33,149 nucleotides of DNA from assembly GCA_964508215.1 (NCBI GenBank), contig CAZDSI010000011.1:1-33149 (forward strand). Direction: 5' to 3'. Source of the stretch: an uncultured Opitutales bacterium (GTDB taxonomy: Bacteria; Verrucomicrobiota; Verrucomicrobiia; Opitutales; UBA9783). Under the pieces are notes generated by a model. That model was not told the origin of the DNA, did no database searches, and was given only the letters and a program-made list of their open reading frames with translations. This document shows, piece after piece, positions 1,453 through 24,737 of this stretch (the stretch's first letter is position 1; each line of letters opens with the position of its first letter). Made by a program: the position numbers and the translations under genes.

Positions 1453-1884
1453 AGGCGAAAAATTAACGTATTCTTTCCAAACTGTAAAGGGCAAATAACG
1501 AGATCTAATAAATTGTCTTAATCGAAATAACATCTCCTAATTTTTTAAAAACCAATAGGATACATAACGTAAGGAATAGGCCATAGGAAACCTTTCCTTG
1601 TAAGATAAACAGGATTTCGTGCTAAAAAGCGTCAAGTTAAAAAGCCACCGGGTATTGTGAGCTCTGAAACTGTCGTTGTCTCGGCCTATTGAACGGGAGC
1701 TTGTTTTTCTTTTTTAAAACGTGAAGTTTTTTGTTTCCGCGCAAAAAAATTTCCATCCTTTTGTTTCCAACACGAAGCCTTTGATGTGGCTTTAGTCCTT
1801 TATAAAAAGTATTGGTTTTAATGTTAAAAAACTTGGGTAATTTTTCCGCCGAAATCCTTAAGTTTTACAATAGATGCATATGGC

Positions 1885-3844: not shown

Positions 3845-5281
3845 ATGCAATCGCTTTTTTTATTTCTTTTAAGCGTTCTTTTTTGCACAAGCTTGAGTGC
3901 AAGCTCCCAAAACAGCACGGTAGCCATACTACAAGAAGGCATTAAAACGGAGCCATTTCGGATATTTAGCTTTTTAATGTTTGCGTTGGCTATTTTGCAC
4001 ACTTTCTTGGCCAGTCGGTTTCAACGTCTTTCCGCCGATTTAAAACAAAAACATCGAGAACGCATTCAAAAGGGCGAAGTCCCGGCGAGCAGAGTTTCGT
4101 TTTGGGCCGAATTAACACATTTTTTCGGAGAGGTTGAAGCCATATTTGGACTATGGATATTTCCTCTAATCTTAGGCTATGTTTGGCGTTTTGGGTGGAA
4201 GGAAATGGTACATTACTTTGAGACGCGCAACTACACCGAACCTGTGTTTGTTATTGTTATTATGGCCATTGCTTCAACACGGCCCGTATTGCGATTCGCC
4301 GAATATTGTCTACAGGGCATTGTGTGCCTCATTGGGGGAAACAAACCCTCTTGCTGGTGGTTTGCAATACTAATTGTTGCACCTTTATTGGGTTCTTTTA
4401 TTACGGAACCGGCGGCAATGACCATTGGAGCATTACTTTTGTCAAAACATATTTATGAGTTAAAACCGTCAAAGGCTTTTTCCTACAGTACCTTAGGACT
4501 TTTATTTGTAAACGTGTCGGTTGGCGGGGTTTTAACAAATTTTGCGGCTCCGCCGGTATTAATGGTTGCCCATCGATGGGGTTGGAGCACAGTTTTTATG
4601 TTTAAACATTTTGGTTGGGAAGCTACGACGGGAATTGTACTGGCAACGATTTGTTATGGACTAATCTTTACCAAAGAACTTAAGCGGCTGAACACACAAA
4701 AACCCAAAACTAAACATTTTGAAAGAGAAATTGATCGAGTACCCTTTGCGGTAATTACGGTACACTTGCTTTTTTTATGCTGGACTGTGATCAATGCACA
4801 TTCCTTGCCGCTTATTTTGGGTGGTCTTTTATTTTTTCTGGCTTTTCTGAAAACAACAGCTCACTATCAGCAAAATTTTTCGATACGCGGGCCTTTAATG
4901 GTTGGATTTTTTCTTGCCAGCCTTGTAACCCACGGTGGATTGCAATCCTGGTGGATACAGCCTGTCTTAAGTGCAATGAGCGAGCAAGCATTGTTTTGGG
5001 GTGCAACATTTTTGACATCTTTCAACGATAACGCTGCTATCACGTATTTAGCTTCATTGGTAGAAGGATTTAGAGATAATTTTGCATTTCAAAAGGCCGT
5101 TGTTGGGGGAGCTGTTGTTGGGGGCGGGTTAACAGTTATTGCAAACGCTCCAAATCCTGCCGGACAATCGCTTCTGTCAAAATACTTCCAAAATGGCATT
5201 GTGTCACCGCTTTATCTTGCGCTTTCGGCTGTCCTGCCAACACTTTTTATGGCGTTAGCATTTCGCTGCCTGACTCTTTAA
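3845..5281 (+). CDS. Putative Na+/H+ antiporter (DUF1504 / ion transporter superfamily)
   Basis: 478 aa polytopic membrane protein with GEVEAIFGLW, SFITEPAAMT, NFAAPPVLMVA, TSFNDNAA and GLTVIANAPNPAG, motifs I recognise from the DUF1504 family. Confidence 0.8.
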   Translation: MQSLFLFLLSVLFCTSLSASSQNSTVAILQEGIKTEPFRIFSFLMFALAILHTFLASRFQRLSADLKQKHRERIQKGEVPASRVSFWAELTHFFGEVEAIFGLWIFPLILGYVWRFGWKEMVHYFETRNYTEPVFVIVIMAIASTRPVLRFAEYCLQGIVCLIGGNKPSCWWFAILIVAPLLGSFITEPAAMTIGALLLSKHIYELKPSKAFSYSTLGLLFVNVSVGGVLTNFAAPPVLMVAHRWGWSTVFMFKHFGWEATTGIVLATICYGLIFTKELKRLNTQKPKTKHFEREIDRVPFAVITVHLLFLCWTVINAHSLPLILGGLLFFLAFLKTTAHYQQNFSIRGPLMVGFFLASLVTHGGLQSWWIQPVLSAMSEQALFWGATFLTSFNDNAAITYLASLVEGFRDNFAFQKAVVGGAVVGGGLTVIANAPNPAGQSLLSKYFQNGIVSPLYLALSAVLPTLFMALAFRCLTL

Positions 5282-5430: not shown

Positions 5431-6732
5431 ATGAAACGCATCCAAATTGGTGTATTTGCTTGTTTGTTGGGCTCGGTTTTGTGGTTCGTATGGCATTGTA
5501 AATCAGTAGATCGTACCTTAAATATCCTGCCGATAACACCTCAAGAACGTGAAGCTATCCAGAAAATTGGTGAAAGCTCCAAAGATTATCTCTTGGTTCA
5601 GGCTTTTACCGAAGAAAAAGCCTTCCGTTTGGCTTCTTATAAGGTCTTAATGTTGCTGAGCCAATCCGTTGCCGAGGCTTACCAAGAGAGGGTTCAAGCC
5701 GACGGGAAATGTTTTCAACAACAATTAAAAAGGGATTGTATTACCCAAATTTCTAACGACTTGAAAATAGTAGAAAAATTAGGAGATTATAAGGGTCTAG
5801 AGGGTAATACTTATTCGTTTGAAACGCACAAACTACGAGAAATATTGAAGGAAACAAAAAGATTTGTTCAAAAAAACTTCAACGATTTGGTTACACACAA
5901 CTGGATGAAAAAATACCCCGTTGATTTCCAAAAAATTTGCCTAATGGGTGGTCAAAAAGATAGTAAGTATAATTTCGAAGACATTCAGGGGTCAATGGTT
6001 GCCCTCAATATTAGATCTGCTTTGATTGTCTTGGATCATTTATTGCAGAAGAGATTTTTTCAGTTATGTCCTATGGGAGAAAACCCTCTTGTTCATGCAA
6101 CCGCTCTTCCAAATAAGTTGTTCGAACAAAAAAGAGTTGATCTTAAAAATTTTACCTGGCTTTACAAGGATGAGAATTTGCCCGGAGAGTTGATGTACCC
6201 TCATCAAGGTTACGCGATGCGTGGATATGTCGATGACAAAAAATATTTTTACGATGGAGTGGCGAAGAAAGCGTTTGGTCCGATAGATTGTTCTGCGTGG
6301 ATTTGCCAACTTATTGGCTCAAAATCCCTTGCGGCAACTGCTCATTTTTATGCTTTGTTTAACCGAAAATTTTCGCTGGGCCAAACTCGTTTTGAAAGAG
6401 AGAAAGATAACGTCATGTTAGAGGATCTTGCCCAATGTGTAGAGCCAGTAAAAGTTGATAACATTGGCGATCTAAAGCCAGGGATGATTGTTGCCTTTCG
6501 AACATTTGATACCGACGAAGATCCAAGAATGGAAGGGCTTGGTAATTCTGGACATATTGCCTTAGTTATTCAAGCGACAAAAACGGAACTTATCGTATTG
6601 GAAAGGACACGACATCTTCCTATGTATTCTGGGTTTGGCCTCCGAAAAATTCCTTTTAAAACCCCGAATAAAAATACACGACAGTTTTATTTTAAGTTCA
6701 GTCGAAATTTAGCACAGACAAATAAAAATTAA
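5431..6732 (+). CDS. Membrane-anchored or exported protein with C-terminal NlpC/P60-like (papain-fold) domain
   Basis: N-terminal hydrophobic helix; C-terminal IDCSAWICQ, DLKPGMIVAF, GHIALV, IVLE follow the order of the NlpC/P60 Cys-His-polar triad motifs. The N-terminal ~270 aa are unassigned. Confidence 0.55.
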   Translation: MKRIQIGVFACLLGSVLWFVWHCKSVDRTLNILPITPQEREAIQKIGESSKDYLLVQAFTEEKAFRLASYKVLMLLSQSVAEAYQERVQADGKCFQQQLKRDCITQISNDLKIVEKLGDYKGLEGNTYSFETHKLREILKETKRFVQKNFNDLVTHNWMKKYPVDFQKICLMGGQKDSKYNFEDIQGSMVALNIRSALIVLDHLLQKRFFQLCPMGENPLVHATALPNKLFEQKRVDLKNFTWLYKDENLPGELMYPHQGYAMRGYVDDKKYFYDGVAKKAFGPIDCSAWICQLIGSKSLAATAHFYALFNRKFSLGQTRFEREKDNVMLEDLAQCVEPVKVDNIGDLKPGMIVAFRTFDTDEDPRMEGLGNSGHIALVIQATKTELIVLERTRHLPMYSGFGLRKIPFKTPNKNTRQFYFKFSRNLAQTNKN

Positions 6733-6846: not shown

Positions 6847-7848
6847 ATGATGAGAATACTAACGGGATTGATGTTTGGCTTATCATCGGTTTTTTTACAC
6901 GGTGGAATTATAAAAATAAATTCTTCGCTAGATAAATTTGATGGCCAAATTGCTGTGTTTTTTTGCGGGCACGTTTCGAGAGAAAAGGCCAGCGATCTAA
7001 GGCTGGAGACCGACCTTGGGCAAAATCATTTTCACGAAGCTTGCTATTGTATCGACCCAAATAACGAAAAAAATCCCGATCTATGCGGTCATATCCTTGA
7101 TCCCGAGGTGCAAGAATATCTAAAACACAATGGGGCTGAGAAATTTCAATTTGTCCTTGTGGAACACCCACCGGCCATAGGTGTCCTTGAGGTTCCAAGT
7201 TTTCTCGAAACTGTTTACACTATGTTGGCCCCCGGAGGAGCACTGGTACTTCCCATTGATCTGCCATTAAGGACCGGTAAAGACATTATTTTCTCTCCCT
7301 GCTTCAACGGAGAATGCTTAGCATTTCCAGTGTCCTTCAACATGAGTAGTTTTAAGGCTTATGTTGACAAATTTAATACAAAATTAGGCCTTTACATAAA
7401 GGCAGATCCACTTACATGGCAAACACTAGAGGATATACAGGCCTACCAAAGTGGCCTGTATTCACAGTTACATGGATCTTCTCGGTTTTTGAAAACGATG
7501 TGGCCCGATATACTTTTGGATCGGCTCGAAGGTAAGCTTATTCCCGTTCCTGCGTGGCCATTTCTTCCGTTACTGCAAAGATCTTTTTACGCCAAGTACT
7601 TTGAAACGTTAAAATCCTTAGGCTTTATTCCAATGTTAAATTATCACGACATTAATCAGCCTGACTATATTGAAATATTATGTTCTTATGCTGCGGCAGC
7701 GAAGATACCAGCGAAATGTTTTAAAATGCGTATCGGCTGCTTTTCAGGGTTACTATGTTTGTCTTGTAAGTGTGGGTGTGAACAATTGTCTCTTTTTAGC
7801 AATGGGCTTTTTAAGACAATGACCTTGAGGTGTATTAAGCCTTTTTAA
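6847..7848 (+). CDS. Hypothetical exported protein with class I SAM-methyltransferase-like domain
   Basis: Signal-like N-terminus; VFFCGH (degenerate motif I), CIDPNNEKNPDL, FQFVLVEHPP and FLETVYTMLAPGGALVLP (LxPGG motif); Cys-rich C-terminus. Confidence 0.45.
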   Translation: MMRILTGLMFGLSSVFLHGGIIKINSSLDKFDGQIAVFFCGHVSREKASDLRLETDLGQNHFHEACYCIDPNNEKNPDLCGHILDPEVQEYLKHNGAEKFQFVLVEHPPAIGVLEVPSFLETVYTMLAPGGALVLPIDLPLRTGKDIIFSPCFNGECLAFPVSFNMSSFKAYVDKFNTKLGLYIKADPLTWQTLEDIQAYQSGLYSQLHGSSRFLKTMWPDILLDRLEGKLIPVPAWPFLPLLQRSFYAKYFETLKSLGFIPMLNYHDINQPDYIEILCSYAAAAKIPAKCFKMRIGCFSGLLCLSCKCGCEQLSLFSNGLFKTMTLRCIKPF

Positions 7849-7970: not shown

Positions 7971-7998
7971 CATCTTTGCTATTGATTTTTGGTCGACT

Positions 7999-8072
7999 TG
8001 GTGCGGGTGGACGGAATCGAACCGACGAATCCAGCTTGGAAGGCTGGAGTTTTACCACTAAACTACACCCGC
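7999..8072 (-). tRNA. tRNA-Gly (anticodon TCC), CCA encoded
   Basis: GCGGGTG TA GTTT AGTGGTA AAAC T CCAGC CTTCCAA GCTGG ATTC GTCGG TTCGATT CCGTC CACCCGC A CCA; 74-nt cloverleaf with G1-C72, C2-G71, G3-C70. Confidence 0.97.
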
Positions 8073-8243
8073 TTGCAAGAATACTTAAGAAATACAAAAA
8101 TCTTTTAAGTTTTACAGGTCAAGCAATTTTAACGTCTTCGGATAATTAATTTATTTTTTTGAGAAGTACAAGAATTTGGGTGCACCTTTTGTTATTGTAC
8201 GCATCCGTCTCATTAAGGCTTATATTTTTCCGATTAAAATAAA

Positions 8244-9793
8244 TTAACAAGTAGAAAAAGGCGTATCGCCAAGCTTTTTTCTCTTACTCACAGAGGAAAA
8301 ATATAAAGCCGATAAATAAAAAATCCCAAGAGATAGGCTGGTATAGGGCAGCGATAGCTTAAAAGCGATACTAGCTCCGGGCAAGATTGCGGCCTTAGAC
8401 AGTATAAAAATGAGGGCTTTGATGCTCTGCACGGCAATCCAATTAAAAATATCAACTAAAGGAAACCAGGGAAGAATGCTTCCGACCAATAAAGCACATC
8501 CTCCAAAAGCAACTGCAAAGGAGGCTAATGGAATTACAAACATATTGAGTAATAAAGCCCAAGGTGTAAGGTATTGCCAGTAATAGGCCATCAATATTTG
8601 GCTTAAGATCGTTGCCGCCAATGAGACAGAAAATGCACTAATCATCCATTGTTGGATGCTAAGTTTATATTTTTGAAACAACGATAGCGATTTTTGTGGA
8701 ATATATTGATATGCCAAAAACAAGCTTCTTAATTGGTTGGCTAAGGGTGCTCCGAACCAAATCAGTGCGCCTACTATTCCGTAAGAAAGTTGAAAACCGA
8801 CATCAAAAAGTTGTTTTGGGTTCCAGAGAAGAACAATGAATAACGCAACCAAAAAAGTTCCTTCACCTCTGATCTGACGATAAAAAAGTTGTGCAAAAAC
8901 CCAGGTTGCCACCATCACAAAGGCTCTTAAGGTTGAGGGGGAGTTGCCAACGACAAACACATAAAACCCCACCACGCACAGTGCGCATAACAAACGTAAT
9001 GGCCGTGAGCAAGGAAAGAACTTCAGGAACCCAAAAACCACGATAGAGATTACACCAACGTGTAACCCGCTAACAGCTAAAAGATGTAAGGTTCCGGTAA
9101 GCGTGAAATCTTTAAAGGTTGATGGCGAAAGATATTCTTTTCGTCCCAACAACATGGCTTTATAAGTATGGGCGGCTTCGCTATCCTTATCGGAGCCTTT
9201 CGATAATATTCGTTCACAGTAACGATTGCACCGAAAAAATAAAGACTCGTGCGTGTTCATACAACGCTCGAGTGTTCTTACGCGAGTTATTTTGTAATGA
9301 ATGTCGTTTGTCCATAAAAAATGATCAAACTTATGTTCTGGAAACCTGATTGGCCGGTTGTCAAAACTCCCGTAACGTTCCATTGTTGTCCACGTTCCAT
9401 GAGCTTGCTATCTTTACCTAAGGGTAACGAAAAATAAACCGAATCGCCTTTTAAAAACTTTAAATGCAGGCCCTGTACCGATCCAATCGATCCAATCCCA
9501 GATGTTTTATTGCCGAAAGAGCGAAATATTTTTTCAACGATAAGAGTTGCCCGTACTTCACGTGGCGGTATTGGCTTCGGAGTGGCCAGTTCAAAACGCC
9601 AATTTCCGTAAATAGCACACAAGACTACACATAGGCTAAGAATAAGACTCTTGCGTCCTCGATAAATTAAGGCAATGGCAAGGAAGCTACCCCATATAAC
9701 CCATGGAAAAATACCGCTTCCCTCAAGGCAAGCAAGACCTAGATAAGCAAATACGATTGAAAAAACGCACCAAAATAACGCGGTAAAAATCAT
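8244..9793 (-). pseudogene. comEC: ComEC/Rec2 DNA-uptake channel split by a 1-nt deletion (true pseudogene or sequencing error)
   Basis: ORF 9287-9793 carries the N-terminal TMs and OB-like region (GQQWNVTGVL). ORF 8244-9383 carries KAMLLG, TGTLHLLAVSGLHVG and DVGFQLSY of the Competence domain. The span is 1550 nt, one short of a whole number of codons; the frames join near 9345-9366. No C-terminal metallo-beta-lactamase domain. Confidence 0.9.
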
Positions 9794-10581
9794 TTTTTAG
9801 AGTTATTTTCTTCCTCTAAAGTGGCCTCATACCAAAAAACGTATTTTAAAAACGTGGCAAATGCCGAATGAATGGCCACGCAAACTCCACCGAAGCCATC
9901 CAAAAACCCCAATCGAAAAATATATCCACGTAGTAATGTCCAACCGGCACGTAACGGTGCTACAAAAGCAATCCTTGACTTCTTTAGCTTAATGTTTTGT
10001 TCGCGTTTTTGTTGCACAAAAAGTTCGGCAAAACGAAGGATCTTTGTTACGTGGGTTTTGAGAGTAGGATAGGAGTAGTGTTCCAAATCTCCTTTCAGTC
10101 GTGCAATAGCGCCGGATAATTCTAATTTTTCGTGAACACATCCGCCTCCCCATTTCCCTTTTTCTCTTAAAAACAACCGTAGCGACCAATCGGGATACCA
10201 ATCTCCGTGCTTAATCCAACGATTGCAGAACCAAGTTTTGCGCGGGAAGCCCGCCCCCGTATAATTATGCTTTCTAGATAAAAAGAACTCGATGGACTTT
10301 TTAAGTTCTTTGCTTACCCTTTCGTCTGCATCAAGGCTTAAAACCCACGGTTGAGTAGCATGAGCTAAGGCAAGATTTTTTTGATCACGAAAGCCTTGCC
10401 ATTCATGGGTAAAGACTTTCGCACCATATTCCTTCTCTGCGATTTTGTCGGTACCGTCGACACAATCGTTTACAATTACAACAATTTCCTTTGCCCAGTT
10501 TTTGAGAGGATCCAAGCAACGTCGAATGTTTTGTGCTTCATTGTGGGCAATAATAACAATCGATAGCGGTAAAGGATCCAT
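9790..10581 (-). CDS. Glycosyltransferase family 2 (WaaE/KdtX/LgtF-like LPS core glucosyltransferase)
   Basis: LSIVIIAHNEAQNI, QKNLAL, WVLSLDADE (DxD), GGCVHEKL, GFLDGFGG; ATGA overlap with the comEC start. Confidence 0.9.
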   Translation of the reverse strand: MDPLPLSIVIIAHNEAQNIRRCLDPLKNWAKEIVVIVNDCVDGTDKIAEKEYGAKVFTHEWQGFRDQKNLALAHATQPWVLSLDADERVSKELKKSIEFFLSRKHNYTGAGFPRKTWFCNRWIKHGDWYPDWSLRLFLREKGKWGGGCVHEKLELSGAIARLKGDLEHYSYPTLKTHVTKILRFAELFVQQKREQNIKLKKSRIAFVAPLRAGWTLLRGYIFRLGFLDGFGGVCVAIHSAFATFLKYVFWYEATLEEENNSKK

Positions 10582-10617
10582 AAATTAAGGTTTATAACTT
10601 GAGAATGAAAAGCCTTA

Positions 10618-10694
10618 TGGTGGGAGATACTGGGTTCGAACCAGCGACTTCTAGCGTGTGAAGCTAGCGCTCTAACCAACTGAGCTAATCCCCC
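10618..10694 (-). tRNA. tRNA-Val (anticodon CAC), CCA encoded
   Basis: GGGGGAT TA GCTC AGTTGGTTA GAGC G CTAGC TTCACAC GCTAG AAGTC GCTGG TTCGAAC CCAGT ATCTCCC A CCA; 77 nt. Confidence 0.97.
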
Positions 10695-11131
10695 ACTAAC
10701 AAAAAGGCAAACTTTCTCGTTTTAAAAGACAAGATTAAAATCTTAACATCCGTATAATACAGAACAAATTTATTATTAACCTCTTGAAGCCAGTTCGGTA
10801 CATCGAGGTTATGGATGGAGTCGTTAAAAGAATTTTTTTGCGTAAAAAGCCTTAAAACATTCTATAACGTCGTAGGGAAGGGTTCCTTCCCAGAACTTAT
10901 GGAAGTTTTTCAGTTTTAATTCAAGCGAAGCTTTAAACTTATACTTATCGTAAAGTTAAGGAACGATTATTTACTTTCCTTGAGGCGATTATTGGAAATT
11001 TAGGTGTGTAAGCCGTTAGCGCAGTGCTCCTTCAGAACTTTTGGCTGCCCTTCTCCTCCTTAAAACAAGCCGTCGATATTCTAAGGGTTAACCACTCTAC
11101 AATTTTGTCTAAGGCGTTTTCCGAGAGCCGT

Positions 11132-12328
11132 TTAGTTATGAGCAAACCTGCTAAACGCCTTGTTCTTTCGTCCCTTGTATCGTCCCTTATAATTTCCCGA
11201 TGGACGCCTAAAGGACGATGTTTCCTTTTTCTCGGTTTTATCTTTATCCCCGTTGATGAATTTATGGATTAACTTCCAATGATGTTTTTCTGAAGATGAA
11301 ATGAACGATAATGCACATCCTTCGGCTCCAGCACGTGCCGTACGGCCAATACGATGGATGTAGTCTTCTGGACATTGAGGTAGGTCGTAGTTAATAACGT
11401 GTTGAATATGAGGAACATCAAGGCCGCGTGCCGCAATATCGGTTGCAACCATGATACGTTTCTTTTGTTCGCGAAACGATTGCATAACTCGCTCACGTTT
11501 GCGCTGCTCTAAATTACCATGAATCGCTGCCGCATCGTAATTGCTTAATTTTAAACGTTTGGCGAGTTTTTCGGCACCTATTTTCGTTTTGACAAAAACT
11601 AGAATAGAGCCTTGCCGTTGTTCAAGTTCTTTTACGAGAAAATTAAACTTTTCATTGGGTTCAGTGTGTAAAACATCTTGCTTGATTTTTTCTACTGGAC
11701 GGGTTGTCGAAGCAACAGCAATACGTTGTGGATTGTTAAGGTATTTTTGCGCATTGCGAATAATATTGGCTGGCATAGTCGCCGAAAACATAAACGTTTG
11801 GCGTTTCTCAGGCATATTTCGAGCAATAGCATCAATTTGTTCGCTAAATCCCATGTCTAGCATACGATCCATTTCATCCAAAACAAAGAACTCCAGTCTT
11901 TTTAAAGATAAAGTTTTGCGTCCTAAGTGATCGAAAACACGTCCCGGTGTGCCAAGAATCAATTGCGGGTTTTTCCTTAATTGGGCACACTGTTTCCCAA
12001 AATTTTCTCCTCCAATAAGAAGAGCAAAGAATAAGCCCATTTGAGGGTCTAATAACTTAACCAAAGTGTCTTTTACTTGAGTTGCCAACTCTCGAGTTGG
12101 TGTTAATACCAATGCTTGACGGTCTCTACGATCTAAAAGCTGTGAAAGTATCGGTAACAAAAATGCAAGTGTTTTGCCTGTGCCCGTTTGCGAAGAAGCT
12201 AGGATGTCTTTTCCTTCAAGGGCAGGAAGAATACTCATCGCTTGGATGGGGGTTGGTACTTTTATATGCATGTTTTCCAATGCTTGCAAAAGTATTTTTG
12301 GTAGCTTAAATGTATAAAAATTTTCCAT
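11132..12328 (-). CDS. rhlE: DEAD-box ATP-dependent RNA helicase (RhlE-like)
   Basis: Q motif PTPIQ, Walker A QTGTGKT, PTRELA, TPGR, motif II as DEMD, SAT, ARGLD, HRIGRTAR; basic C-terminal tail. Confidence 0.93.
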   Translation of the reverse strand: MENFYTFKLPKILLQALENMHIKVPTPIQAMSILPALEGKDILASSQTGTGKTLAFLLPILSQLLDRRDRQALVLTPTRELATQVKDTLVKLLDPQMGLFFALLIGGENFGKQCAQLRKNPQLILGTPGRVFDHLGRKTLSLKRLEFFVLDEMDRMLDMGFSEQIDAIARNMPEKRQTFMFSATMPANIIRNAQKYLNNPQRIAVASTTRPVEKIKQDVLHTEPNEKFNFLVKELEQRQGSILVFVKTKIGAEKLAKRLKLSNYDAAAIHGNLEQRKRERVMQSFREQKKRIMVATDIAARGLDVPHIQHVINYDLPQCPEDYIHRIGRTARAGAEGCALSFISSSEKHHWKLIHKFINGDKDKTEKKETSSFRRPSGNYKGRYKGRKNKAFSRFAHN

Positions 12329-12340
12329 AATTAAAAAATG

Positions 12341-12381
12341 AAAAAACCCTTAAACGTCATAAATTTAGACGCTCAAGGGTT
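12341..12381 (-). terminator. Intrinsic terminator or attenuator between csp and rhlE
   Basis: Minus-strand RNA AACCCUU-GAG-CGUC-(9 nt)-GACG-UUU-AAGGGUU followed by a U run; 14-bp stem whose two G-U pairs form only on the minus-strand transcript. Confidence 0.7.
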
Positions 12382-12401
12382 AATTTAGACGTCTTTAAAA
12401 C

Positions 12402-12605
12402 TTATAAAAGCTTTATGTCTGTAGCAGAAGTTCTACCCTTGCTACTGGTTAATTCATAACTGACGCGTTGTCCTTCTTGAAGATTTCGGATTCCCGCGCT
12501 CTCAAGTGCAGAGATGTGAACGAACACATCGTTGCCCTTTTCTTCTGGTTGAATAAATCCAAAACCCTTTGTGGTGTTAAACCATTTTACGATACCTGTG
12601 TACAT
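12402..12605 (-). CDS. cspA: Cold-shock protein (CspA family)
   Basis: 67 aa; GIVKWFN, RNP1 KGFGFI and RNP2 VFVH. The paralog name is nominal. Confidence 0.97.
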   Translation of the reverse strand: MYTGIVKWFNTTKGFGFIQPEEKGNDVFVHISALESAGIRNLQEGQRVSYELTSSKGRTSATDIKLL

Positions 12606-12968
12606 AGTATATTTTATTCTTAGTGATTACGTTCGAGCAAATCATAACCTTTACCTAAACAATTTGTGTTTTTTAACCCACTATTGCCTAATAAAAGACT
12701 ATCACATGCCCTTTAGAAGAAAAATCACAACATACCTTAAGTAAATTAAGTCAAGAAAATTAAAATTTATATTTTAAACCGAGGGGTCATACAATAGATT
12801 GGTAAAGCATTAATAATAAAGCAAGCTTCGGCTTGGAAAGCATATCTATATTGCCGTTGTGCAAAAATGTATAGACTTGGGCCATAGAAGGAAATTACTT
12901 TACGTCTCGATAAAATTTTTGAACAGGATTTCTAAATTTTGGTCTATCGTTATGTATAATGGTAAAAA

Positions 12969-13439: not shown

Positions 13440-13824
13440 GAGAAAACATGTATGTCCCGAAATTGGCTTAATCTGTTGTGCTCGATAAAAAACAGTAAAG
13501 ATTAATGACTATGGGAGGCTGTAAAGGTTAAATATAAACGGCTTGAGCCTGAAGATCAAATAATTGTAAAATGCTGAAAAAAGATAAGCTTTTTACAATG
13601 TGTTTTAACACTTAGTATAAAGTAGACAGAAAAGGTGTGAATAGGGCTGCTTTAAGCTAGAATAAAGTGTCTATTTCTCTTTAAGCTTGGCATTTTTTTA
13701 AATTAATCCGAGAAATTACTAACATTTTACTTGATTTAACTTGTTTATAGTCTTAATTAGGCAACGTTTATTTAAGTCAATTACTTTGGTACAAGTGTGC
13801 TGAAGTTTAACGTTGTACGAAACA

Positions 13825-15363
13825 ATGAATAATAGTCCCTCTCAACCAGCATTCTCAAAATTACGAGCGATCTTTTTTCCAATTCATCGCTATGAATTGA
13901 AAAAGGTATTACCGATGAGTATGATATTCTTTTTCATACTTTTTAATTACACCTGCTTGCGGAATATCAAAGATTCGTTAGTGGTTACCAGTACGGGAGC
14001 GGAAGCGCTTTCTTTCTTAAAATTGTTTTGTGTAACACCTTCGGCGATCGTATTTATGCTGCTTTACGCAAAAGCCAGCAATATTTTCAGTAACGAAAAA
14101 TTGTTTTATGCGACCTTATCGCCATTTATTTTGTTTTTTGGTTTGTTTGCCTTCGTCATTTATCCTCATAGAGAAGTCTTACATCCTGCGGCCGAAACCA
14201 TTGCTTTGTGGCAAGGAAAATGGCCTTCACTTTACTGGCCATTTGCCGTTTTTGGAGTTTGGAGTTATGCGATTTTTTACGTTTTAGCCGAATTGTGGGG
14301 TAGCGCTATCTTGTCGCTTTCGTTCTGGCAGTTCGCCAATCAGGTTACACATACGGCCGAAGCAAAACGCGTTTACGCATTTTTCGGTTTTGTGGCTCAA
14401 TTTTCTTTAATTGTTTCGGGTGTTCTCGGTGATCGTTTTTCCAATATTCGTGAAAAGGTTGGCCCAGGAGTTGATCCATGGCAAATTTCGCTTAATTGGT
14501 TAATGGGTATGGTTGTTGTGTTTGGTATTGCAACAATGTTAATTTATAAGTGGATTTACAAATACGTATTAACCGATAAGCGCTTTTACGACAAACCCGA
14601 ATTGCCCGGTGTTAAAAAGGGGAAGAAAAAGGCTGGCTTAATCGAAAGTTTAAAGACGATCTGTACTTCGCCGTATCTTGGTTTGATTGCAATGCTTGTT
14701 ATTGCTTACGGTATCACCGTTAACGTTGTTGAAGGTTTGTGGAAAAGTCAGTTGAAGCTTCGCTACCACAATGAAAACGACTATAACACCTTTATGAGCC
14801 AATTTACAATTTATACCGGTATTGCTTCGATGATAATGTTATTAGTCGGTGGTAATATTTTACGCCTATGTTGTTGGGTTGTTGCCGCAATGTTTACGCC
14901 GGTTGTATTATTTCTCGGTGGAAGCCTTTTCTTTACCTTCGTGTTGTATAGGTCACAGTTGATCGATACATTGACAAAATGGGGCACAAATCCGATTGCT
15001 TTGGCTGTACTTTTAGGTGCTGCTATGGTAATGATTGCGAAGGCAACAAAATATGCTTTGTTTGACCTAACAAAGGAAATGGCTTATATTCCGCTCGACG
15101 AAGAAATGAAGGTAAAAGGTAAGGCTGTTGTGGACGTGGTCGGTGGACGTCTTGGAAAGTCTGGCGGTGCCTTTGTTCAGGTGACTTTGCTTTCGGTCAT
15201 CGGATCTCTGGTAGGACATAAGGTTACATATGACCAAATTGCTCCCTATGTGTTTGGCATTTTTATTGTTATTAGTATCTTGTGGATTTTATCGGTTAAA
15301 GCTCTTGGCAAAAAGGTTGAAGAAGCCAATAAGCTTGCCGGCGAAGTTACGAAAAACCAATAA
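13825..15363 (+). CDS. tlc1: ATP/ADP translocase (TLC/NTT nucleotide transporter)
   Basis: FFILFNYTCLRNIKDSLVV, SFLK, ELWGS, FWQFANQ, KYALFDLTKEMAYIPLD and GRLGKSGG are NTT family signatures. ATG at 13825 preferred to TTG at 13813. Confidence 0.97.
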   Translation: MNNSPSQPAFSKLRAIFFPIHRYELKKVLPMSMIFFFILFNYTCLRNIKDSLVVTSTGAEALSFLKLFCVTPSAIVFMLLYAKASNIFSNEKLFYATLSPFILFFGLFAFVIYPHREVLHPAAETIALWQGKWPSLYWPFAVFGVWSYAIFYVLAELWGSAILSLSFWQFANQVTHTAEAKRVYAFFGFVAQFSLIVSGVLGDRFSNIREKVGPGVDPWQISLNWLMGMVVVFGIATMLIYKWIYKYVLTDKRFYDKPELPGVKKGKKKAGLIESLKTICTSPYLGLIAMLVIAYGITVNVVEGLWKSQLKLRYHNENDYNTFMSQFTIYTGIASMIMLLVGGNILRLCCWVVAAMFTPVVLFLGGSLFFTFVLYRSQLIDTLTKWGTNPIALAVLLGAAMVMIAKATKYALFDLTKEMAYIPLDEEMKVKGKAVVDVVGGRLGKSGGAFVQVTLLSVIGSLVGHKVTYDQIAPYVFGIFIVISILWILSVKALGKKVEEANKLAGEVTKNQ

Positions 15364-15378
15364 CTCTTTTTTTAAACC

Positions 15379-15406
15379 AAAACCCGAGCAAAAGCTCGGG
15401 TTTTTT
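15379..15406 (+). terminator. Intrinsic terminator of the NTT gene
   Basis: AAAACCCGAGC-AAAA-GCTCGGGTTTT perfect stem with a T run, 15 nt after the stop; A-rich 5' flank suggests it could act in both directions. Confidence 0.9.
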
Positions 15407-15429
15407 GTTATTTATAAATATTTATTGAT

Positions 15430-15939
15430 ATGAAAAGGCACAGTAGTGTTCGAATTATTTTATTAAACTCTAAAAATGAACTTCTTTTAATGTGTGCCGA
15501 TGATCCCAAAACGACTACGCTAAAGGGAAAATACAATGGTCGATTTTGGTATACGGTCGGTGGTCAAATTGAGGATGGTGAATCTATCGAACAAGCAGCT
15601 TTACGCGAGATATATGAGGAAACCGGTATTAAAAGAGAAAAGGTTGTTCTTGGCCCAGTTGTTTGGTTTGGCGAGTTTGATTTGATTTTGTCGGGAATCG
15701 CGACCCGGCTCAAACAGGTATTTATTGTGGCGAGAACGGCTGAAAATAATTTTACATTAAAAAATTTAACCGCTGAAGAACAAGCTGTTGTGCAACGGCT
15801 CGATTGGTTTTCATTGCAGAGAATACAGACCAGTACGGAAGTGGTTTACCCAGTTTTATTGCCGAAATATTTGCCAGATGTTATTGCGGGAAATTACCCC
15901 GAAAAGCCGATAGAGATCGATTTGGGGAAACAACCGTAA
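15430..15939 (+). CDS. Nudix hydrolase 1
   Basis: Canonical Nudix box GQIEDGESIEQAALREIYEETGI. Confidence 0.92.
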   Translation: MKRHSSVRIILLNSKNELLLMCADDPKTTTLKGKYNGRFWYTVGGQIEDGESIEQAALREIYEETGIKREKVVLGPVVWFGEFDLILSGIATRLKQVFIVARTAENNFTLKNLTAEEQAVVQRLDWFSLQRIQTSTEVVYPVLLPKYLPDVIAGNYPEKPIEIDLGKQP

Positions 15940-17229: not shown

Positions 17230-18164
17230 TCAGGTAATTGGCTTTAACCCGAGTTTTCGAAGCAGCATGTGGTCGTCAACCGGCGAACAGTTTTTGGCCG
17301 TCAAAAGCTTTTGCCCGATTGCAATGCCATTGGCACCAACTAGAAAACAAAGCGCCTGCATTTCTTCGGACATGGTACTTCGTCCTGCTGGAATATGCAG
17401 GGTACTTTGAGGTAAAAAGATTCTGGTCGTTGCGATTAAGCGGATGATTTCGTCCCAAGTTGGTGATGGAGTATTTTGAAGTGGAGTTCCCTCCATAGGA
17501 ATCAAATATTAATTGGAACGACTTCAGGCTTATGATCCATTGAAGCCAGAGCAAGTAACCATTCAAGGCGATCAGAAACAGATTCGCCCGTTCCTAAAAT
17601 GCCCCCACAGCAAATTTTAAGTCCTGCTTGATGCGCAACTTTTGCTGTTTCTAACCGCTCTTCCCATCGGTGCGTTGTTACAATTTTTGGATAGAAAGAG
17701 CGAGAGCTCTCAATATTATGATTGTAGATTTCGCACCCAGCAGATTTCAAACCTCGTGCTTCTTTTTCGGACAAAAACCCTAGGGTACAACATACTTTTA
17801 GGCCAACACTCTTAACCGCGTTAATGGCTTCAAGGATTTTTTCCCAAGCGTTTTTGTTGGGTACTCGACGCCAAGCAGCGCCCAAACAAAACCGGGTTGC
17901 GCCCATTATTTTTGCTTCTTGTGCTTGGTCGATAATTTTCTCAAGAGGCAGAAAGGGGGTGATTGCAACGTTTGTATTGTAATGGCCCGATTGTGTACAA
18001 AAAGCGCAATCTTCGGAGCATTTGCCGCTCTTAATTGAGCATAATCGACTCAATTGAATCTTACCTTCTGGCCAAAACTGATGATGTACATTTGCGGCCA
18101 TTAAGATAAGTTCTAATAGAGGAAGATCATAAACAGCTTTTAGCTCTTCATATGTTACGGTCAT
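17230..18164 (-). pseudogene. bioB: Biotin synthase split by a 1-nt deletion (true pseudogene or sequencing error)
   Basis: Radical SAM CSEDCAFC, RFCLGAAWR, YNHN, CCGGILG and VPIN in ORF 17502-18164, continuing as LIPMEGTPL...AGR...GANG...KLLT in ORF 17230-17505. Adding one T to AAT ATT TGA (run at 17504-17506) gives AAT ATT TTG ATT and a 311-aa protein. Confidence 0.95.
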
Positions 18165-18266: not shown

Positions 18267-18728
18267 TTATACCCAACGTTTGCATAAATAAATCGTATTG
18301 AGTTTACGTTTTAATTGTTTTGGGATCCATTGAGAGAGTATTTCGGGTAGAATTTTGGCTTCGGAAAGTTTTTCAAGAGGTTCCCAACGAAAGAAAAGTT
18401 TTTCTTCTTTCGAAATGACAGGGTGGAGATAATTAAAATCTTCGTGACAAGCTAAGAAAATTAGGTTGTATTCATGGTTGTGGCATTTTTGTTGTCCATC
18501 AAAACGGTATTCTAAGCAGCCTAGGAAACGCCCAATACGACAATCGTAACCAATTTCTTCAATCAATTCACGGTGTAAGGCTGATCGAGCATCTTCGTTT
18601 ACCTCTACGTGGCCTCCCGGCAGATAAGTATATTCACGTTTTGGATTTTGTGTATAGGCCAGCAAAATATAATTGTGACTCAGTATAACGGCTCGACTTA
18701 AAATATGGATTGGAAGTGTTGTATTCAT
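18267..18728 (-). CDS. Nudix hydrolase 2
   Basis: Box GHVEVNEDARSALHRELIEEIGY; ATG at 18728 overlaps the upstream TGA (ATGA), so preferred to the longer ORF start. Confidence 0.9.
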   Translation of the reverse strand: MNTTLPIHILSRAVILSHNYILLAYTQNPKREYTYLPGGHVEVNEDARSALHRELIEEIGYDCRIGRFLGCLEYRFDGQQKCHNHEYNLIFLACHEDFNYLHPVISKEEKLFFRWEPLEKLSEAKILPEILSQWIPKQLKRKLNTIYLCKRWV

Positions 18729-19297
18729 TTGTTTTTTCCTACGTAAGAAATTTTCCACCGGTTATTGTGGGGAACTTGGACTGGGCTAAAAAAAACTGGT
18801 CTTGCATTTTCAAGTTGCCACATGTCATGCCCTAATAAATCCAATAGAGCGAAAAATATACCGCCATGTGATACGATAAGCAAGGTATTGTTTGTGTTTG
18901 ATAATAGAGTATCTATGGTATTTAGAACGCGTTTTCGAAACCTTTCGTAAGATTCAGCTTTGGTTGGTGTTTTGCCGGATTTCCAAATTTCGAGGTTAAA
19001 TTTTTCGTTTCGGATTTCGCCATCCATAATTACCCAACTTGCTTCTTTTAACCCGTTAATAGGCTCAAGGCTCACTTTTAACTTTGTGTTGATAATTTTG
19101 GCTGTTTTTAAAGCACGTTTTAAGGGACTTGTATAAATATGTTGAATCGAAAGAGACGCTAGTTCCATAGCGGCCTGGTTAGCTTGTTCGACGCCCTGTT
19201 GATTTAGCGGAATGTCTATTTGTCCCATGGCCCGATGTTCGACGTTCCAATCGGTTTGTCCATGCCGAATAAAGTAAAAAGGGCGGGGGGATAGCAT
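18725..19297 (-). CDS. Histidine phosphatase (phosphoglycerate-mutase-like family)
   Basis: FIRHGQTDWN, TSPLKRALKTA, LKEASW and VSHGG. Confidence 0.92.
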   Translation of the reverse strand: MLSPRPFYFIRHGQTDWNVEHRAMGQIDIPLNQQGVEQANQAAMELASLSIQHIYTSPLKRALKTAKIINTKLKVSLEPINGLKEASWVIMDGEIRNEKFNLEIWKSGKTPTKAESYERFRKRVLNTIDTLLSNTNNTLLIVSHGGIFFALLDLLGHDMWQLENARPVFFSPVQVPHNNRWKISYVGKNK

Positions 19298-19848: not shown

Positions 19849-20457
19849 CTAACCTTTGGCCGAGCTATAAGAAGGATTTCCTTTGGCAGAAAATCTATTC
19901 GGTAAAAAACTGAGACTTAAATATCTTTTCAGAAAAAATAACCCGCCAATGGTAATACAATGGTCTATGGCACCGTTTTGGATTAATTTTTCAAGCTCAT
20001 TGAACGGAATCAATTGGGTCTGTAGTTCTTCATACATATCCCAATGTGTTTTGCCGGTTGCTTCGCAATCTTTAAATAAAATGTAATGGACCTTGTTTGT
20101 TTGTAAAGCAGGATTGGGGTAGCAGGATGCTAATACGAGGGGGTTGCGTCCAATAAAACCCGTTTCTTCTTGAAGTTCACGCATTGCGCCAACAGTTGGG
20201 TCTTCTCCGGGTTCTAGAATCCCTCCGGGAGCTTCTAAACAGATAGTTTGGCTTCCAATCCTAAACTGCTTTACCATAATTAGTTCGTGGTTTGGTGTTA
20301 TGGCTAATGCTTGCACCCAGTCGGGACTTTTCATTACAAAAAAATTACCCTTACGTCCATCGGGATGCTTTGCTTCGCGTTCGCATACTTCACAAATGTG
20401 GTAGCGAGCCATTACCTTGTCTGAAAGAATTTCCCAATTTTGAGGTGCTGATTTCAT
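19849..20457 (-). CDS. Nudix hydrolase 4 (ADP-ribose pyrophosphatase/NudF-like)
   Basis: VKQFR, LEAPGGILEPGEDPTVGAMRELQEETGF, YPNPA and a C-terminal DxxE-like DMYE segment typical of ADPRases. Confidence 0.85.
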   Translation of the reverse strand: MKSAPQNWEILSDKVMARYHICEVCEREAKHPDGRKGNFFVMKSPDWVQALAITPNHELIMVKQFRIGSQTICLEAPGGILEPGEDPTVGAMRELQEETGFIGRNPLVLASCYPNPALQTNKVHYILFKDCEATGKTHWDMYEELQTQLIPFNELEKLIQNGAIDHCITIGGLFFLKRYLSLSFLPNRFSAKGNPSYSSAKG

Positions 20458-21283: not shown

Positions 21284-23827
21284 ATGAAAGAACTCGTTTC
21301 CGACCCTTCGGTGACCCCCATGATGCGGCAATATTTAAATATTCAACAAAAATTGTCATCAGATACCTTGCTTTTTTTTCGTTTAGGGGATTTTTATGAA
21401 ATGTTCCATAGGGATGCCGAGGAAGGCGCACGACTTTTAGGGCTTACATTGACCCATCGAAATGGCATACCGATGGCCGGAGTACCTTATCATGCGGCAC
21501 AGTCTTATATTGATAAGCTCTTAAAAGCGGGTAAAAAAGTGGCAATTTGCGATCAAATGGAAAGCCCGCAGCCAGGTAAAAAGCTGGTAGATCGTTCCTT
21601 AACACGCATTATTAGTCCTGGTACGGTTTTAGAGGATGCTCAGTTGGTGGCCAAAACAAACCATTACATTGCCTGCTTGGAAATACGTTTGCCTTATTTA
21701 TGTGCGGCGTGGCTTGATTTATCCACGGGAGAATTTAAAATTTCCTATGAAAAGAATTTTGAAGATGTTCTCGCTTTATTGGCCGCTTTGAACCCCAAGG
21801 AAATCATTTTGTCGGAAACGTTTAATCAAACGGTAGAGGCCTCTGATCTAAAGGCATCATTTTTAAGTTTTTTGGCGGGGAAAGTGTTATCAAAAATGCC
21901 TTCTTATGCCTTTGAAACATCTACCAGTTATGGACAGATTCGTGAAGTTTTGAACGTGCACACACTGGATGGTTTTGGAATCATGGAAAATTGTCCGGCT
22001 CTAGGCGTTGCCGGAGCATTGCTGCAGTATGTAACACAAAATTTATGCCGAAAGCCTCAAAACGTACGAGGTATTGTGCTTCATCAATGCAGAAATGCTT
22101 TATTGCTAAACCCTTCGACGCTGCAGCATCTGGAAATTTTTAGCACTTTACAGGGTAATCGAGAAGGTTCTCTCTTGAATGTTTTGGATCAGACGGTTAC
22201 CGCTGCCGGTGGTCGTTTAGTTGAGCAGTTTTTAACACAACCTTTGTTGAGCGTGAAAGGTATAAATACACGTCAAGACATTGTAAGAGCTTTTGTTCAA
22301 GAGCCCTCTCTCTCGCGTTCTTTGCAACAAAATTTAGCGAATACACGTGATATTTTACGGTTGTTAAGTCGCTTGCAAAACCGTGGACAAAATCCTCGTG
22401 AGTTGGGCGGTATTTTAAATACTCTAACGGTATTGCCCGGGATAAAAAAAGATCTGACAAATTTTGAAGCAGCAGAAGTGCGGGCACTTAATCGGCGGGT
22501 AGACCTTTGTGAGGATCTTTATCAATTGTTAAAAAAAGCGCTTAAGGAAGAGTTACCGAACGACCTAAGCGAAGGTGGGTATATACGACCGGGATACGAC
22601 GAGAAATTAGATTATTTAAAAAACCTAACGTCTTCAAACCGAACGTGGTTGACCGAGCTTGAACGTAGCGAACAGGAAAAAACCGGTATTCGCAATTTAA
22701 AAATTCGTTACAGCCAAACTTTTGGCTACTTTATTGAAGTGACCAAATCACAGCTGTCTTTGGTGCCTTGCCGTTACATTCGCAAGCAAACAACAACGAA
22801 TGCGGAACGTTATTATACCGAAGAACTGAAAACAAAAGAACAGGAGATTTTGCAAGCCGAAACACGGGCTATTGATCGCGAAAAGGAAATTTTCTTTCAT
22901 TTGGTAAACGAGGTCTTAAAGGTTTCCGAGCCTTTGAAAGAAACGGCTTTAGCTTTAGCCGAAATCGATGTTTTTATTGGGTGGAGCCGTTTGGCGCGTG
23001 AAAATTCCTACACCTGTCCTGTTGTGGATGAAAGCGAAAGAATCGAGATTCAGCAAGGACGTCATCCCGTTGTTGAACAGGTACTGAGACGTTCCGGTTT
23101 TAATTCTGCATTTGTGGCCAACGATACTGTATTGGATACCGGACAGGAGCAAATTTTGTTGATTACAGGGCCAAATATGGCGGGTAAATCGACTTACATT
23201 CGTCAGGTTGCTTTAATCGTTTTGATGGCCCAAGTTGGTTGTTGGGTTCCGGCTAAGGCTTGCCGTATTGGGCTTGTTGATCGCATCTTTTCACGCATTG
23301 GTGCCAGCGATGATTTATCACGTGGCCAATCAACCTTCATGGTCGAAATGACCGAAACGGCCAATATTCTCAACAACGCAACAAACAAAAGCTTGGTTAT
23401 TTTGGATGAAATTGGCCGTGGAACAAGCACCTACGACGGATTGAGTATTGCTTGGGCAGTTGTTGAACATTTGCACGGAAAGGAAAATGGTCCGCGTACT
23501 TTGTTCGCAACCCACTACCACGAGCTTACGCAGCTCGAAAAGTTATTGCCTCGCGTGGTGAATTATTCGGTGGTCGTTAAGGAATGGAATGAAGAGATTA
23601 TTTTTGTTCATCAAATTATTCGAGGTGCCGCAAGCCGTTCTTATGGTATTCAAGTTGCCAAACTGGCGGGATTACCACCCACTGTTGTGGAGCGCGCAAA
23701 AAACATTCTAGAAGAGCTCGAAAGCGAAGGAAAAACATTACAAAAGGCTTTAAAGGGTACTAACTTTGACCATAAGCAAAAACCTTCCATGCCGCAGTTG
23801 CGGCTTTTTGCAATAGAAGATGAATAA
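21284..23827 (+). CDS. mutS: DNA mismatch repair protein MutS
   Basis: TPMMRQY, GDFYEMF, Walker A GPNMAGKST, STFMVEM, DEIGRGTST, FATHYHEL and SYGIQVAKLAGLP. Confidence 0.99.
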   Translation: MKELVSDPSVTPMMRQYLNIQQKLSSDTLLFFRLGDFYEMFHRDAEEGARLLGLTLTHRNGIPMAGVPYHAAQSYIDKLLKAGKKVAICDQMESPQPGKKLVDRSLTRIISPGTVLEDAQLVAKTNHYIACLEIRLPYLCAAWLDLSTGEFKISYEKNFEDVLALLAALNPKEIILSETFNQTVEASDLKASFLSFLAGKVLSKMPSYAFETSTSYGQIREVLNVHTLDGFGIMENCPALGVAGALLQYVTQNLCRKPQNVRGIVLHQCRNALLLNPSTLQHLEIFSTLQGNREGSLLNVLDQTVTAAGGRLVEQFLTQPLLSVKGINTRQDIVRAFVQEPSLSRSLQQNLANTRDILRLLSRLQNRGQNPRELGGILNTLTVLPGIKKDLTNFEAAEVRALNRRVDLCEDLYQLLKKALKEELPNDLSEGGYIRPGYDEKLDYLKNLTSSNRTWLTELERSEQEKTGIRNLKIRYSQTFGYFIEVTKSQLSLVPCRYIRKQTTTNAERYYTEELKTKEQEILQAETRAIDREKEIFFHLVNEVLKVSEPLKETALALAEIDVFIGWSRLARENSYTCPVVDESERIEIQQGRHPVVEQVLRRSGFNSAFVANDTVLDTGQEQILLITGPNMAGKSTYIRQVALIVLMAQVGCWVPAKACRIGLVDRIFSRIGASDDLSRGQSTFMVEMTETANILNNATNKSLVILDEIGRGTSTYDGLSIAWAVVEHLHGKENGPRTLFATHYHELTQLEKLLPRVVNYSVVVKEWNEEIIFVHQIIRGAASRSYGIQVAKLAGLPPTVVERAKNILEELESEGKTLQKALKGTNFDHKQKPSMPQLRLFAIEDE

Positions 23828-24229: not shown

Positions 24230-24628
24230 TTACTTTTTAGGGTATTTTTTAGAATGTTCCAAATAGTATTTTGCCAGCGGGGAATCCTCTTCAACTTGAA
24301 CAAAATCTACGGCGATGGCTTCCTCAAAGCCTCCTTTTTGATTATATTTTTCGATTCTTTTCCGTTCGATAGATTCAAAAGGAAGGCTCTGGGTTTTTGC
24401 AATTCCGTGTATGACTTCTAAGCAATCTGCTAGCTCTTCGACCAAATTTTCTTGGCTATCGGCATCAAAAACTTCCTTTGATTCTTCGAGCAATTTTTCT
24501 TTGAAGTAGTGAAGGATTTTTTCGTCGGTTAGGTCTTTAATCAAGGTTACTTTCGCTCCTGTGTCCAACAGCATCTTGTACACTTTATCACGAATAATTT
24601 TATTAAAAAGAAAAGATTTTAAGGCCAT
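24230..24628 (-). CDS. MazG-like / phosphoribosyl-ATP-pyrophosphohydrolase-like NTP pyrophosphohydrolase
   Basis: FNKIIRDK, KLLEESKEV, EELADCLEV and KGGFEE follow the all-alpha NTP-PPase EExxE...ExxD pattern; ATG at 24628 preferred. Confidence 0.85.
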   Translation of the reverse strand: MALKSFLFNKIIRDKVYKMLLDTGAKVTLIKDLTDEKILHYFKEKLLEESKEVFDADSQENLVEELADCLEVIHGIAKTQSLPFESIERKRIEKYNQKGGFEEAIAVDFVQVEEDSPLAKYYLEHSKKYPKK

Positions 24629-24737
24629 TGCTTTTGGGTAACAGAAACTCTTGGGGCATGAAAGAAAATTTTTATGTTCAAAACAAGAAAGCCTCGCCAT
24701 GGTTTTGCGAGGCTTCATAACTTGTAATTTAAAATAT

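Follow-up and report, generated by a model that had tools for sequence, protein, structure and literature searches.

A gene encoding a nucleotide transporter of the ATP/ADP translocase type (NTT) lies on contig CAZDSI010000011.1 (assembly GCA_964508215.1) of an uncultured Opitutales bacterium of the UBA9783 lineage. The whole stretch of DNA that was analysed, 33,149 nucleotides long, is called the window here. The NTT gene is a full-length, canonical and intact representative of its family, and it is accompanied by several features of its own:

13825 to 15363, plus strand: NTT gene, TLC/AAA family (TC 2.A.12), 512 amino acids, with charged residues K66, E156, E303 and K445
15379 to 15414, plus strand: intrinsic terminator with an 11-base-pair stem that includes 6 GC pairs, a 4-nucleotide loop and a T-rich tail
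13543 to 13572, plus strand: candidate sigma-70-like promoter, TTGAGC-18-TAAAAT, a weak match to the consensus only
13784 to 13824, plus strand: minimal transcribed NTT leader, from lake-water metatranscriptome contigs, whose limits are contig ends and not mapped 5′ ends

The open reading frame ends at position 15363 of the plus strand and starts at either TTG 13813 or ATG 13825, and the 512-residue translation from the ATG coincides exactly with a gene call in the database (P0001), whose source contig is 37,747 bp long. The Pfam model PF03219 (TLC) matches this protein with E = 2.5e-180 and 601 bits, against a cutoff of 21, over profile positions 5–490 of 491, and the score with TIGR00769 is 548.7 bits (cutoff 387.2). 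Alignments without large gaps were also obtained with two known structures, wherein residues 7–497 correspond to residues 6–493 of 9j3n_A (‘ADP,ATP carrier protein 1’, 490 bits) and residues 18–495 correspond to residues 21–486 of 9j3j_A (AtNTT1 from Arabidopsis, 407 bits). Hydrophobic segments are distributed along the entire length of the protein, and its size is close to the 500 amino acids typical of the family.

The terminator hairpin (15379–15404) has the form AAAACCCGAGC-AAAA-GCTCGGGTTTT, is followed by TTGTTATTT, and begins 16 nucleotides past the NTT stop codon. Its predicted folding energy of −18.3 kcal/mol corresponds to a z-score of −5.5, and none of 200 shuffled sequences folds as well. 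A preliminary description of this DNA had reported a full-length NTT with its own terminator, and both the profile matches and the hairpin statistics bear this out, with coordinates that prove exact. Upstream of the gene is an AT-rich spacer of 373 nucleotides, in which an Rfam scan matched no family, riboswitch or leader. The candidate promoter agrees with the consensus at 9 of 12 positions, and promoter-like sites occur in this region at only about 1.8 times the frequency expected from shuffled sequence.

Metatranscriptomes include contigs that match this gene. Lake-water metatranscriptome contigs (X15/X16; 97–99% identical to the window) cover positions 13784–14374 and the nearby cold-shock gene. 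An RNA contig from wastewater, with 100% identity, extends over positions 14579–14798. The flanking yacP and NUDIX genes are covered by no RNA contig. These results support transcription of the NTT in situ as its own unit, at the level of contig data in which carry-over of DNA is possible. The cold-shock gene (12402–12605, minus strand, 67 amino acids) has an RNA contig depth above that of the NTT, and is the only other feature covered in this 4-kb stretch.

The plastid transporter AtNTT1 has four charged residues that were defined by mutagenesis, and all four have counterparts in the window protein. The preliminary description had pointed to the retention of a lysine in SFLK, a glutamate in ELWGS and a lysine in GRLGKSGG, and these are indeed found as K66 (SFLK), E156 (AELWGS) and K445 (GRLGKSGG); the fourth residue, absent from that description, is E303 in VVEGLWKS. 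Together they align with K155, E245, E385 and K527 of AtNTT1 (K156, E246, E386 and K528 in the sequence version used here, a constant offset of +1). This K/E/E/K set is invariant in all 120 of the closest Opitutales homologues, and also in 15 of 15 canonical references, irrespective of what they transport and how. Because it is present in every canonical NTT, including H+ symporters for other nucleotides, the set marks a functional-looking canonical NTT but is not diagnostic of ATP/ADP exchange. The earlier argument from these residues thus does not show ATP/ADP exchange, since K/E/E/K is common to all canonical transport classes.

Comparisons with named reference NTTs, which Major et al. 2017 supply as a supplementary FASTA file (PMC5381601), also bear on the likely substrate. 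The four characterised proteins that best match the window NTT are all ATP/ADP exchangers, namely PamNTT1 (52.9% identity), SnNTT1 (50.4%), CtNpt1 (48%) and AtNTT1 (44.5%). An uncharacterised NTT from Caedibacter acanthamoebae is 50.7% identical, and the values for other types of NTT are 41% for PamNTT2, 37% for both PamNTT3 and Tlc5, 32% for CtNpt2, 29% for PamNTT5 and 17% for PamNTT4. As a crude measure that is more discriminating than K/E/E/K, we defined exchanger-specific residues as those that six ATP/ADP exchangers share without exception and that eight other NTTs seldom have. Of these 10 residues, the window NTT carries 8, and only 1 of 5 that are typical of the chlamydial NTT2/3/5–Npt2 group.

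In a neighbour-joining tree, the Opitutales NTTs group together as a single clade (bootstrap 98), within the canonical subfamily and outside the NTT2/3/5–Npt2 group, and all canonical NTTs, including the window protein, are separated from PamNTT4 with a bootstrap of 100. Judged from these sequence comparisons, counter-exchange of ATP for ADP (and phosphate) is the likeliest mechanism for this transporter and, in our estimation, a probable one.

The Opitutales NTT clade comprises more than 120 clusters. Among the best 120 relatives of the window protein, at 53–81% identity, every named one derives from metagenome-assembled genomes (MAGs) of Puniceicoccales or Opitutales bacteria. A second NTT family, 46% identical to the window NTT, also occurs in Puniceicoccales MAGs (P0370; NCBI MDR1666063.1), and some members of the group therefore have more than one NTT type.

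The genes that surround the NTT are of an ordinary bacterial kind and include those for a DEAD-box helicase, a cold-shock protein, a YacP-like nuclease, four NUDIX hydrolases, a threonine-aldolase-like enzyme, bioB, mutS, lipB, ffh and glyA. Three of the neighbours served as markers of the phylogenetic backbone:

21284 to 23827, plus strand: MutS, which places the contig in Opitutales/Puniceicoccales
19849 to 20457, minus strand: NUDIX hydrolase (NudE-like), in a NUDIX–MutS arrangement shared with the closest relative
29751 to 31109, minus strand: Ffh (SRP54)

The organisms named among the best 120 MutS relatives are an Opitutales bacterium, Verrucomicrobia GWF2_51_19, Ruficoccus amylovorans, Ca. 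Didemnitutus, Lacunisphaera and Opitutus, with no named chlamydial or alphaproteobacterial representative among these 120. When MutS was compared with sampled GTDB species genomes, the best of the matches listed was Cerasicoccus maritimus at 55% identity, and other phyla reached 39–46%. The closest MutS (72–73%) is on a metagenomic contig (L086) where the same NUDIX gene, at 61% identity, precedes mutS. Likewise, the Ffh of a Puniceicoccales MAG (L081), which also has an NTT 78% identical to the one studied here, shares 58% identity with the window Ffh.

No rRNA gene is present in the window. From the relatives of MutS, Ffh and the NTT and from the NUDIX–MutS gene order, the contig backbone is assigned to the Verrucomicrobiota, order Opitutales (Puniceicoccales in NCBI taxonomy), and not to the Chlamydiae. 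A chlamydial backbone had been considered at first on account of the 40% GC content, the NTT and a PF07399 protein, and was ruled out by the relatives of MutS, the NTT and the secretion protein SctV (see below). The similarities of MutS and Ffh thus sustain the earlier statement that the core genes belong to the Planctomycetes–Verrucomicrobia–Chlamydiae (PVC) superphylum and are not chlamydial, and they point to none of Chlamydiae, Rickettsiales or Holosporales, where the preliminary description would have expected an NTT.

Given this backbone, the NTT itself could be foreign, either through a chimeric contig that joins chlamydial or rickettsial DNA to verrucomicrobial DNA or through recent horizontal transfer. 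Long intergenic regions on both sides and a terminator of its own are features that such an insert might show. Gene order around the NTT also varies between relatives, such that the gene lies among gyrBA, gmk, ffh and recA in the L081 MAG and among pyrH, plsY, fmt and fabFG on a 270-kb scaffold (L083). Moreover, coverage in public sequencing runs is low, and no single independent contig spans both junctions.

However, the GC content is even across the window (0.35–0.44), and an independent hot-spring run (X2), with contigs at least 99% identical, shows even depth over the NTT and both flanks, from 9 to 27 kb. The monophyly and breadth of the Opitutales clade also argue against a foreign gene, as do the orthologues that relatives carry on Opitutales scaffolds as long as 270 kb and 411 kb, and in PLSDB only one plasmid carries any NTT (38% identity, Ca. 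Megaera). We therefore regard a foreign origin as highly improbable. Even GC content, even depth, the shared NUDIX–MutS order and the Opitutales-only clade make it very likely that the NTT is native to the Opitutales/Puniceicoccales lineage and was inherited vertically in it, and the same four observations speak against the chimeric contig that the preliminary description had named as one threat to its reading.

Genes for non-flagellar type III secretion systems (T3SSs, or injectisomes) are present in the closest relatives of the window organism. The contig that carries the closest MutS (L086) encodes SctV, which scores 900 bits with TIGR01399 against a cutoff of 692 while the FlhA model stays below its own cutoff, as well as the assembly chaperone SctY. 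A search with this SctV recovered at least 120 clusters at 63–80% identity, and all those with names come from MAGs of Puniceicoccales or Opitutales.

In some genomes these genes are in close proximity to the NTT. On JAIRKQ010000026.1 (59,578 bp), whose accession falls among those of the termite-gut MAGs that Mies et al. 2024 deposited, a TyeA-like gene, YscX, SctV and an NTT lie within about 9 kb. On a 410,860-bp ENA scaffold (L091, region 7975–12091; also in L092), the NTT is divergent to sctY–sctV at a distance of 159 nucleotides, an arrangement in which energy import and type III secretion might be regulated together. The NTT of this scaffold is 74% identical to the window NTT and 98% identical to P0011, which belongs to the window’s own NTT subclade (bootstrap 96). 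In addition, a CesT/SicP-type chaperone gene is located 8 kb from the NTT on the 270-kb scaffold noted above. We found no explicit description of T3SS–NTT linkage in Opitutales in the available literature, and we do not claim that it is unpublished.

A separate arrangement was observed on a 1,258,858-bp marine Opitutales sequence from Tara Oceans (L090, positions 8879–12755), where SycN, YscX, SctY and SctV stand immediately before genes for a SET-domain protein and a GH77 4-alpha-glucanotransferase. Chlamydial traits likewise include SET-domain effectors and glycogen metabolism.

In Chlamydiae, Rickettsiales and microsporidia, canonical NTTs are the molecular hallmark of energy parasitism. 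The clade studied here carries the chlamydia-like pair of an NTT and an injectisome, which fits life inside eukaryotic cells, and from this the window organism itself may be presumed to live in a similar manner. We lean, with moderate confidence in the explanation as a whole, towards a native NTT that performs ATP/ADP exchange for a host-exploiting Opitutales bacterium. The product would be a canonical 12-helix NTT in the bacterial inner membrane, expressed from a transcription unit of one gene, which stops at the hairpin terminator. There it would catalyse electroneutral counter-exchange, whereby ATP from the cytosol or nucleus of a eukaryotic host is taken up against bacterial ADP and phosphate, as by PamNTT1, Npt1 and plant NTT1. 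Because members of the clade encode non-flagellar T3SSs and include termite-gut MAGs proposed as flagellate endosymbionts, the NTT is best regarded as part of a chlamydia-like toolkit for host exploitation in a sister PVC phylum.

The evidence that weighs against this explanation concerns both the transported substrate and the way of life. With regard to substrate, the nodes of the neighbour-joining tree that join the Opitutales clade to the references are weak (bootstrap 30–64), rickettsial Tlc3/4/5, which are not ATP/ADP exchangers, fall in a neighbouring group, and the K/E/E/K residues do not separate transport modes. A canonical NTT that supplies GTP, CTP, UTP or NAD+ for nucleic-acid synthesis and not for energy would be compatible with each of these points. 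Such a role would also agree with an identity of at most 53% to any characterised NTT, with the second NTT family, since tasks may be split between paralogues, and with the four NUDIX genes and a MazG-like gene nearby. We nevertheless consider a different substrate quite unlikely, given that the best characterised matches are uniformly ATP/ADP exchangers and that the type-specific positions agree far more with exchangers than with the NTT2/3/5 type. Furthermore, the window NTT is of the type that is most conserved and widespread in the clade, as is the energy-importing isoform in Chlamydiae.

The counter-evidence on way of life begins with the samples. DNA of this species is found at low depth in metagenomes from anaerobic digesters, hot springs, wastewater, microbial mats and rivers, and RNA contigs come from lake water and wastewater, and these sources provide no direct link to a host. 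Within the 33-kb window there is no T3SS gene, host DNA or other marker of host dependence. The window also retains glyA, lipB, bioB (possibly frameshifted) and genes for a LysM protein and an outer-membrane protein, which argues that the organism is not an extremely reduced symbiont. Finally, Begmatov et al. 2025 (PMC12306168) described UBA9783 genomes of less than 1 Mb and left free living in the gut open, with UBA9783 proposed as possibly free-living specialists.

These observations could be accommodated by a free-living or loosely attached bacterium in which the NTT scavenges nucleotides in dense, organic-rich communities or serves some other housekeeping exchange. The occurrence of the window sequence in several open environments and a normal coding density of about 0.87, with biosynthetic and envelope genes kept, are in keeping with such a life. 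The preliminary description had held that the family marks intracellular bacteria, which stands for the canonical subfamily but not for the family at large, as NTT-family proteins are present in many free-living bacteria (PMC5381601). The free-living homologues of Major et al., however, are mostly outside the canonical subfamily, and the window NTT is firmly inside it. Injectisome genes are widespread in the clade and in places adjoin the NTT, which also speaks against a free existence. Moreover, no cultured species is present among the named matches to the NTT (best 120) or to SctV (at least 120 clusters), whereas cultured Puniceicoccaceae do appear among those to MutS. For these reasons a free-living organism seems unlikely to us.

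The reading of the lineage as intracellular rests on the injectisome genes of its closest relatives and on the literature. NTTs were reported by Mies et al. 2024 (PMC11257099) from LL51 and UBA9783, two putatively endosymbiotic families of Opitutales. According to the same report, these families are made up of the intranuclear Ca. Nucleococcus and endosymbionts of ciliates, and the gene is probably ancestral in Opitutales. The families CG1-02-43-26 and UBA9783 have also been predicted to be exclusively symbiotic (bioRxiv 10.1101/2025.05.29.656868). Thus, the earlier suggestion of an intracellular bacterium, possibly with a protist host, gains from the relatives and from published work, and it continues to be a presumption about lifestyle. 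The companion phrase, a poorly known lineage, is apt in that these bacteria are barely studied, but they are not unknown, as their NTTs were reported in 2024.

The window reveals a canonical NTT orthologue that is very likely native to another PVC phylum, linked to injectisome genes in relatives and transcribed in wastewater and lake communities. Its wider impact is limited because NTTs had already been reported in 2024 from putatively endosymbiotic Opitutales, along with the view that they are probably ancestral in the order (PMC11257099). Even so, the window NTT is a concrete candidate for biochemistry, and NTT and SctV together provide a marker pair for finding hosts.

A more far-reaching and rather doubtful possibility is that the Opitutales include a large, global and uncultured radiation, with marine, freshwater, hot-spring, wastewater and termite-gut members, in which both the NTT and a Ysc-type injectisome are ancestral. 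If true, this would be a second chlamydia-like radiation of protist-associated intracellular bacteria within the PVC superphylum. The NTT and T3SS of Opitutales could then share ancestry, or result from ancient exchange, with those of Chlamydiae, which would bear on the timing of energy parasitism in PVC bacteria.

Several other features of the window deserve mention. Clustered around the NTT and mutS, in about 11 kb, are six genes predicted to encode four NUDIX hydrolases, a MazG-like pyrophosphohydrolase and a histidine phosphatase (CobC/GpmB-like):

15430 to 15939, plus strand: NUDIX hydrolase
18267 to 18758, minus strand: NUDIX hydrolase
19849 to 20457, minus strand: NUDIX hydrolase, the backbone marker listed above
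26133 to 26780, minus strand: NUDIX hydrolase
24230 to 24718, minus strand: MazG-like pyrophosphohydrolase
18725 to 19297, minus strand: histidine phosphatase

Enzymes that hydrolyse nucleotide pyrophosphates are therefore unusually dense here, next to a nucleotide importer. None of the six reaches an NCBIfam equivalog cutoff, and only the third NUDIX gene was seen conserved beside mutS in a relative.

Two genes are interrupted. The first 220 codons of bioB (17230–18164, minus strand) match BioB profile positions 3–220 of 307, and the C-terminal part is in another frame after a shortfall of one base in a T-run near position 17503. The hot-spring contigs end at 17500 and restart at 17507, and the gene could be a pseudogene, a population variant or an assembly error. 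Similarly, comEC (8244–9793, minus strand) is split into an N-terminal open reading frame (9287–9793) and a Competence-domain open reading frame (8244–9383), and these differ in frame. The probable reason is a frameshift close to a T-run, at a site that public contigs leave uncovered. The occurrence of both interruptions at short T-runs could reflect early gene decay, although independent contigs end at or near these sites and assembly error is possible.

A membrane protein of 478 amino acids (3845–5281, plus strand) matches PF07399 (Na_H_antiport_3, ‘putative Na+/H+ antiporter’) with E = 3e-160 and matches no NCBIfam model. An open reading frame of at least 512 amino acids (1–1536, minus strand) runs off the left end of the window, and its product combines a signal-like hydrophobic stretch at the N terminus with a linker rich in Thr and Pro. 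Three further plus-strand genes (5431–6732, 6847–7848 and 26881–28995) encode proteins of 433, 333 and 704 amino acids that match no Pfam or NCBIfam family, two of them with an N-terminal hydrophobic segment. These orphans are candidates for secreted or lineage-specific factors in a T3SS-bearing lineage.

Among known systems, the class I antiporters PamNTT1, SnNTT1 and Npt1 (structure 9j3n) most closely resemble the window NTT, with collinear identity of 48–53%, a length of about 500 amino acids, the K/E/E/K residues, agreement at 8 of 10 exchanger positions and organization as a single-gene unit. They differ in that the present host belongs to the Verrucomicrobiota and not the Chlamydiota, and in that its NTT falls in a separate, Opitutales-only clade that is not nested in chlamydial NTTs. 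The plastid transporters NTT1 and NTT2 of Arabidopsis (9j3j) are likewise of the canonical subfamily, with 44.5% identity and the same four charged residues. Unlike the window protein, they are eukaryotic, carry a transit peptide and import cytosolic ATP into an organelle and not into a bacterium.

NTT-family proteins are widespread, and the characterised transporters constitute one canonical subfamily (Major et al. 2017, PMC5381601). The NTT-like proteins of free-living bacteria described in that study, including NTT-HEAT fusions and the PamNTT4-like clade, share the Pfam superfamily with the window NTT, but the latter is a single-domain protein, is 17% identical to PamNTT4 and groups within the canonical clade.

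Further counterparts are the Opitutales NTTs of Mies et al. (LL51, UBA9783 and the ‘Nucleococcus cluster’; PMC11257099), which come from the same order and the same NTT clade. The MAGs with the closest named NTT relative (78%) and the closest MutS (72–73%), as well as the MAG in which T3SS genes are linked to an NTT, are of the same JGI metagenome series, and one of them was verified as a termite-gut MAG of Mies et al.; for the first two (L081 and L086), neighbouring JGI metagenome numbers suggest a link to the termite-gut series. Unlike those termite-gut bacteria, the window organism is found in hot-spring, wastewater, digester, river and lake samples. Because its MutS is only 73% identical to that of its nearest relative, it represents a different genus or family. 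It adds an environmental member to the barely described verrucomicrobial symbionts of the ‘Nucleococcus cluster’, LL51 and UBA9783.

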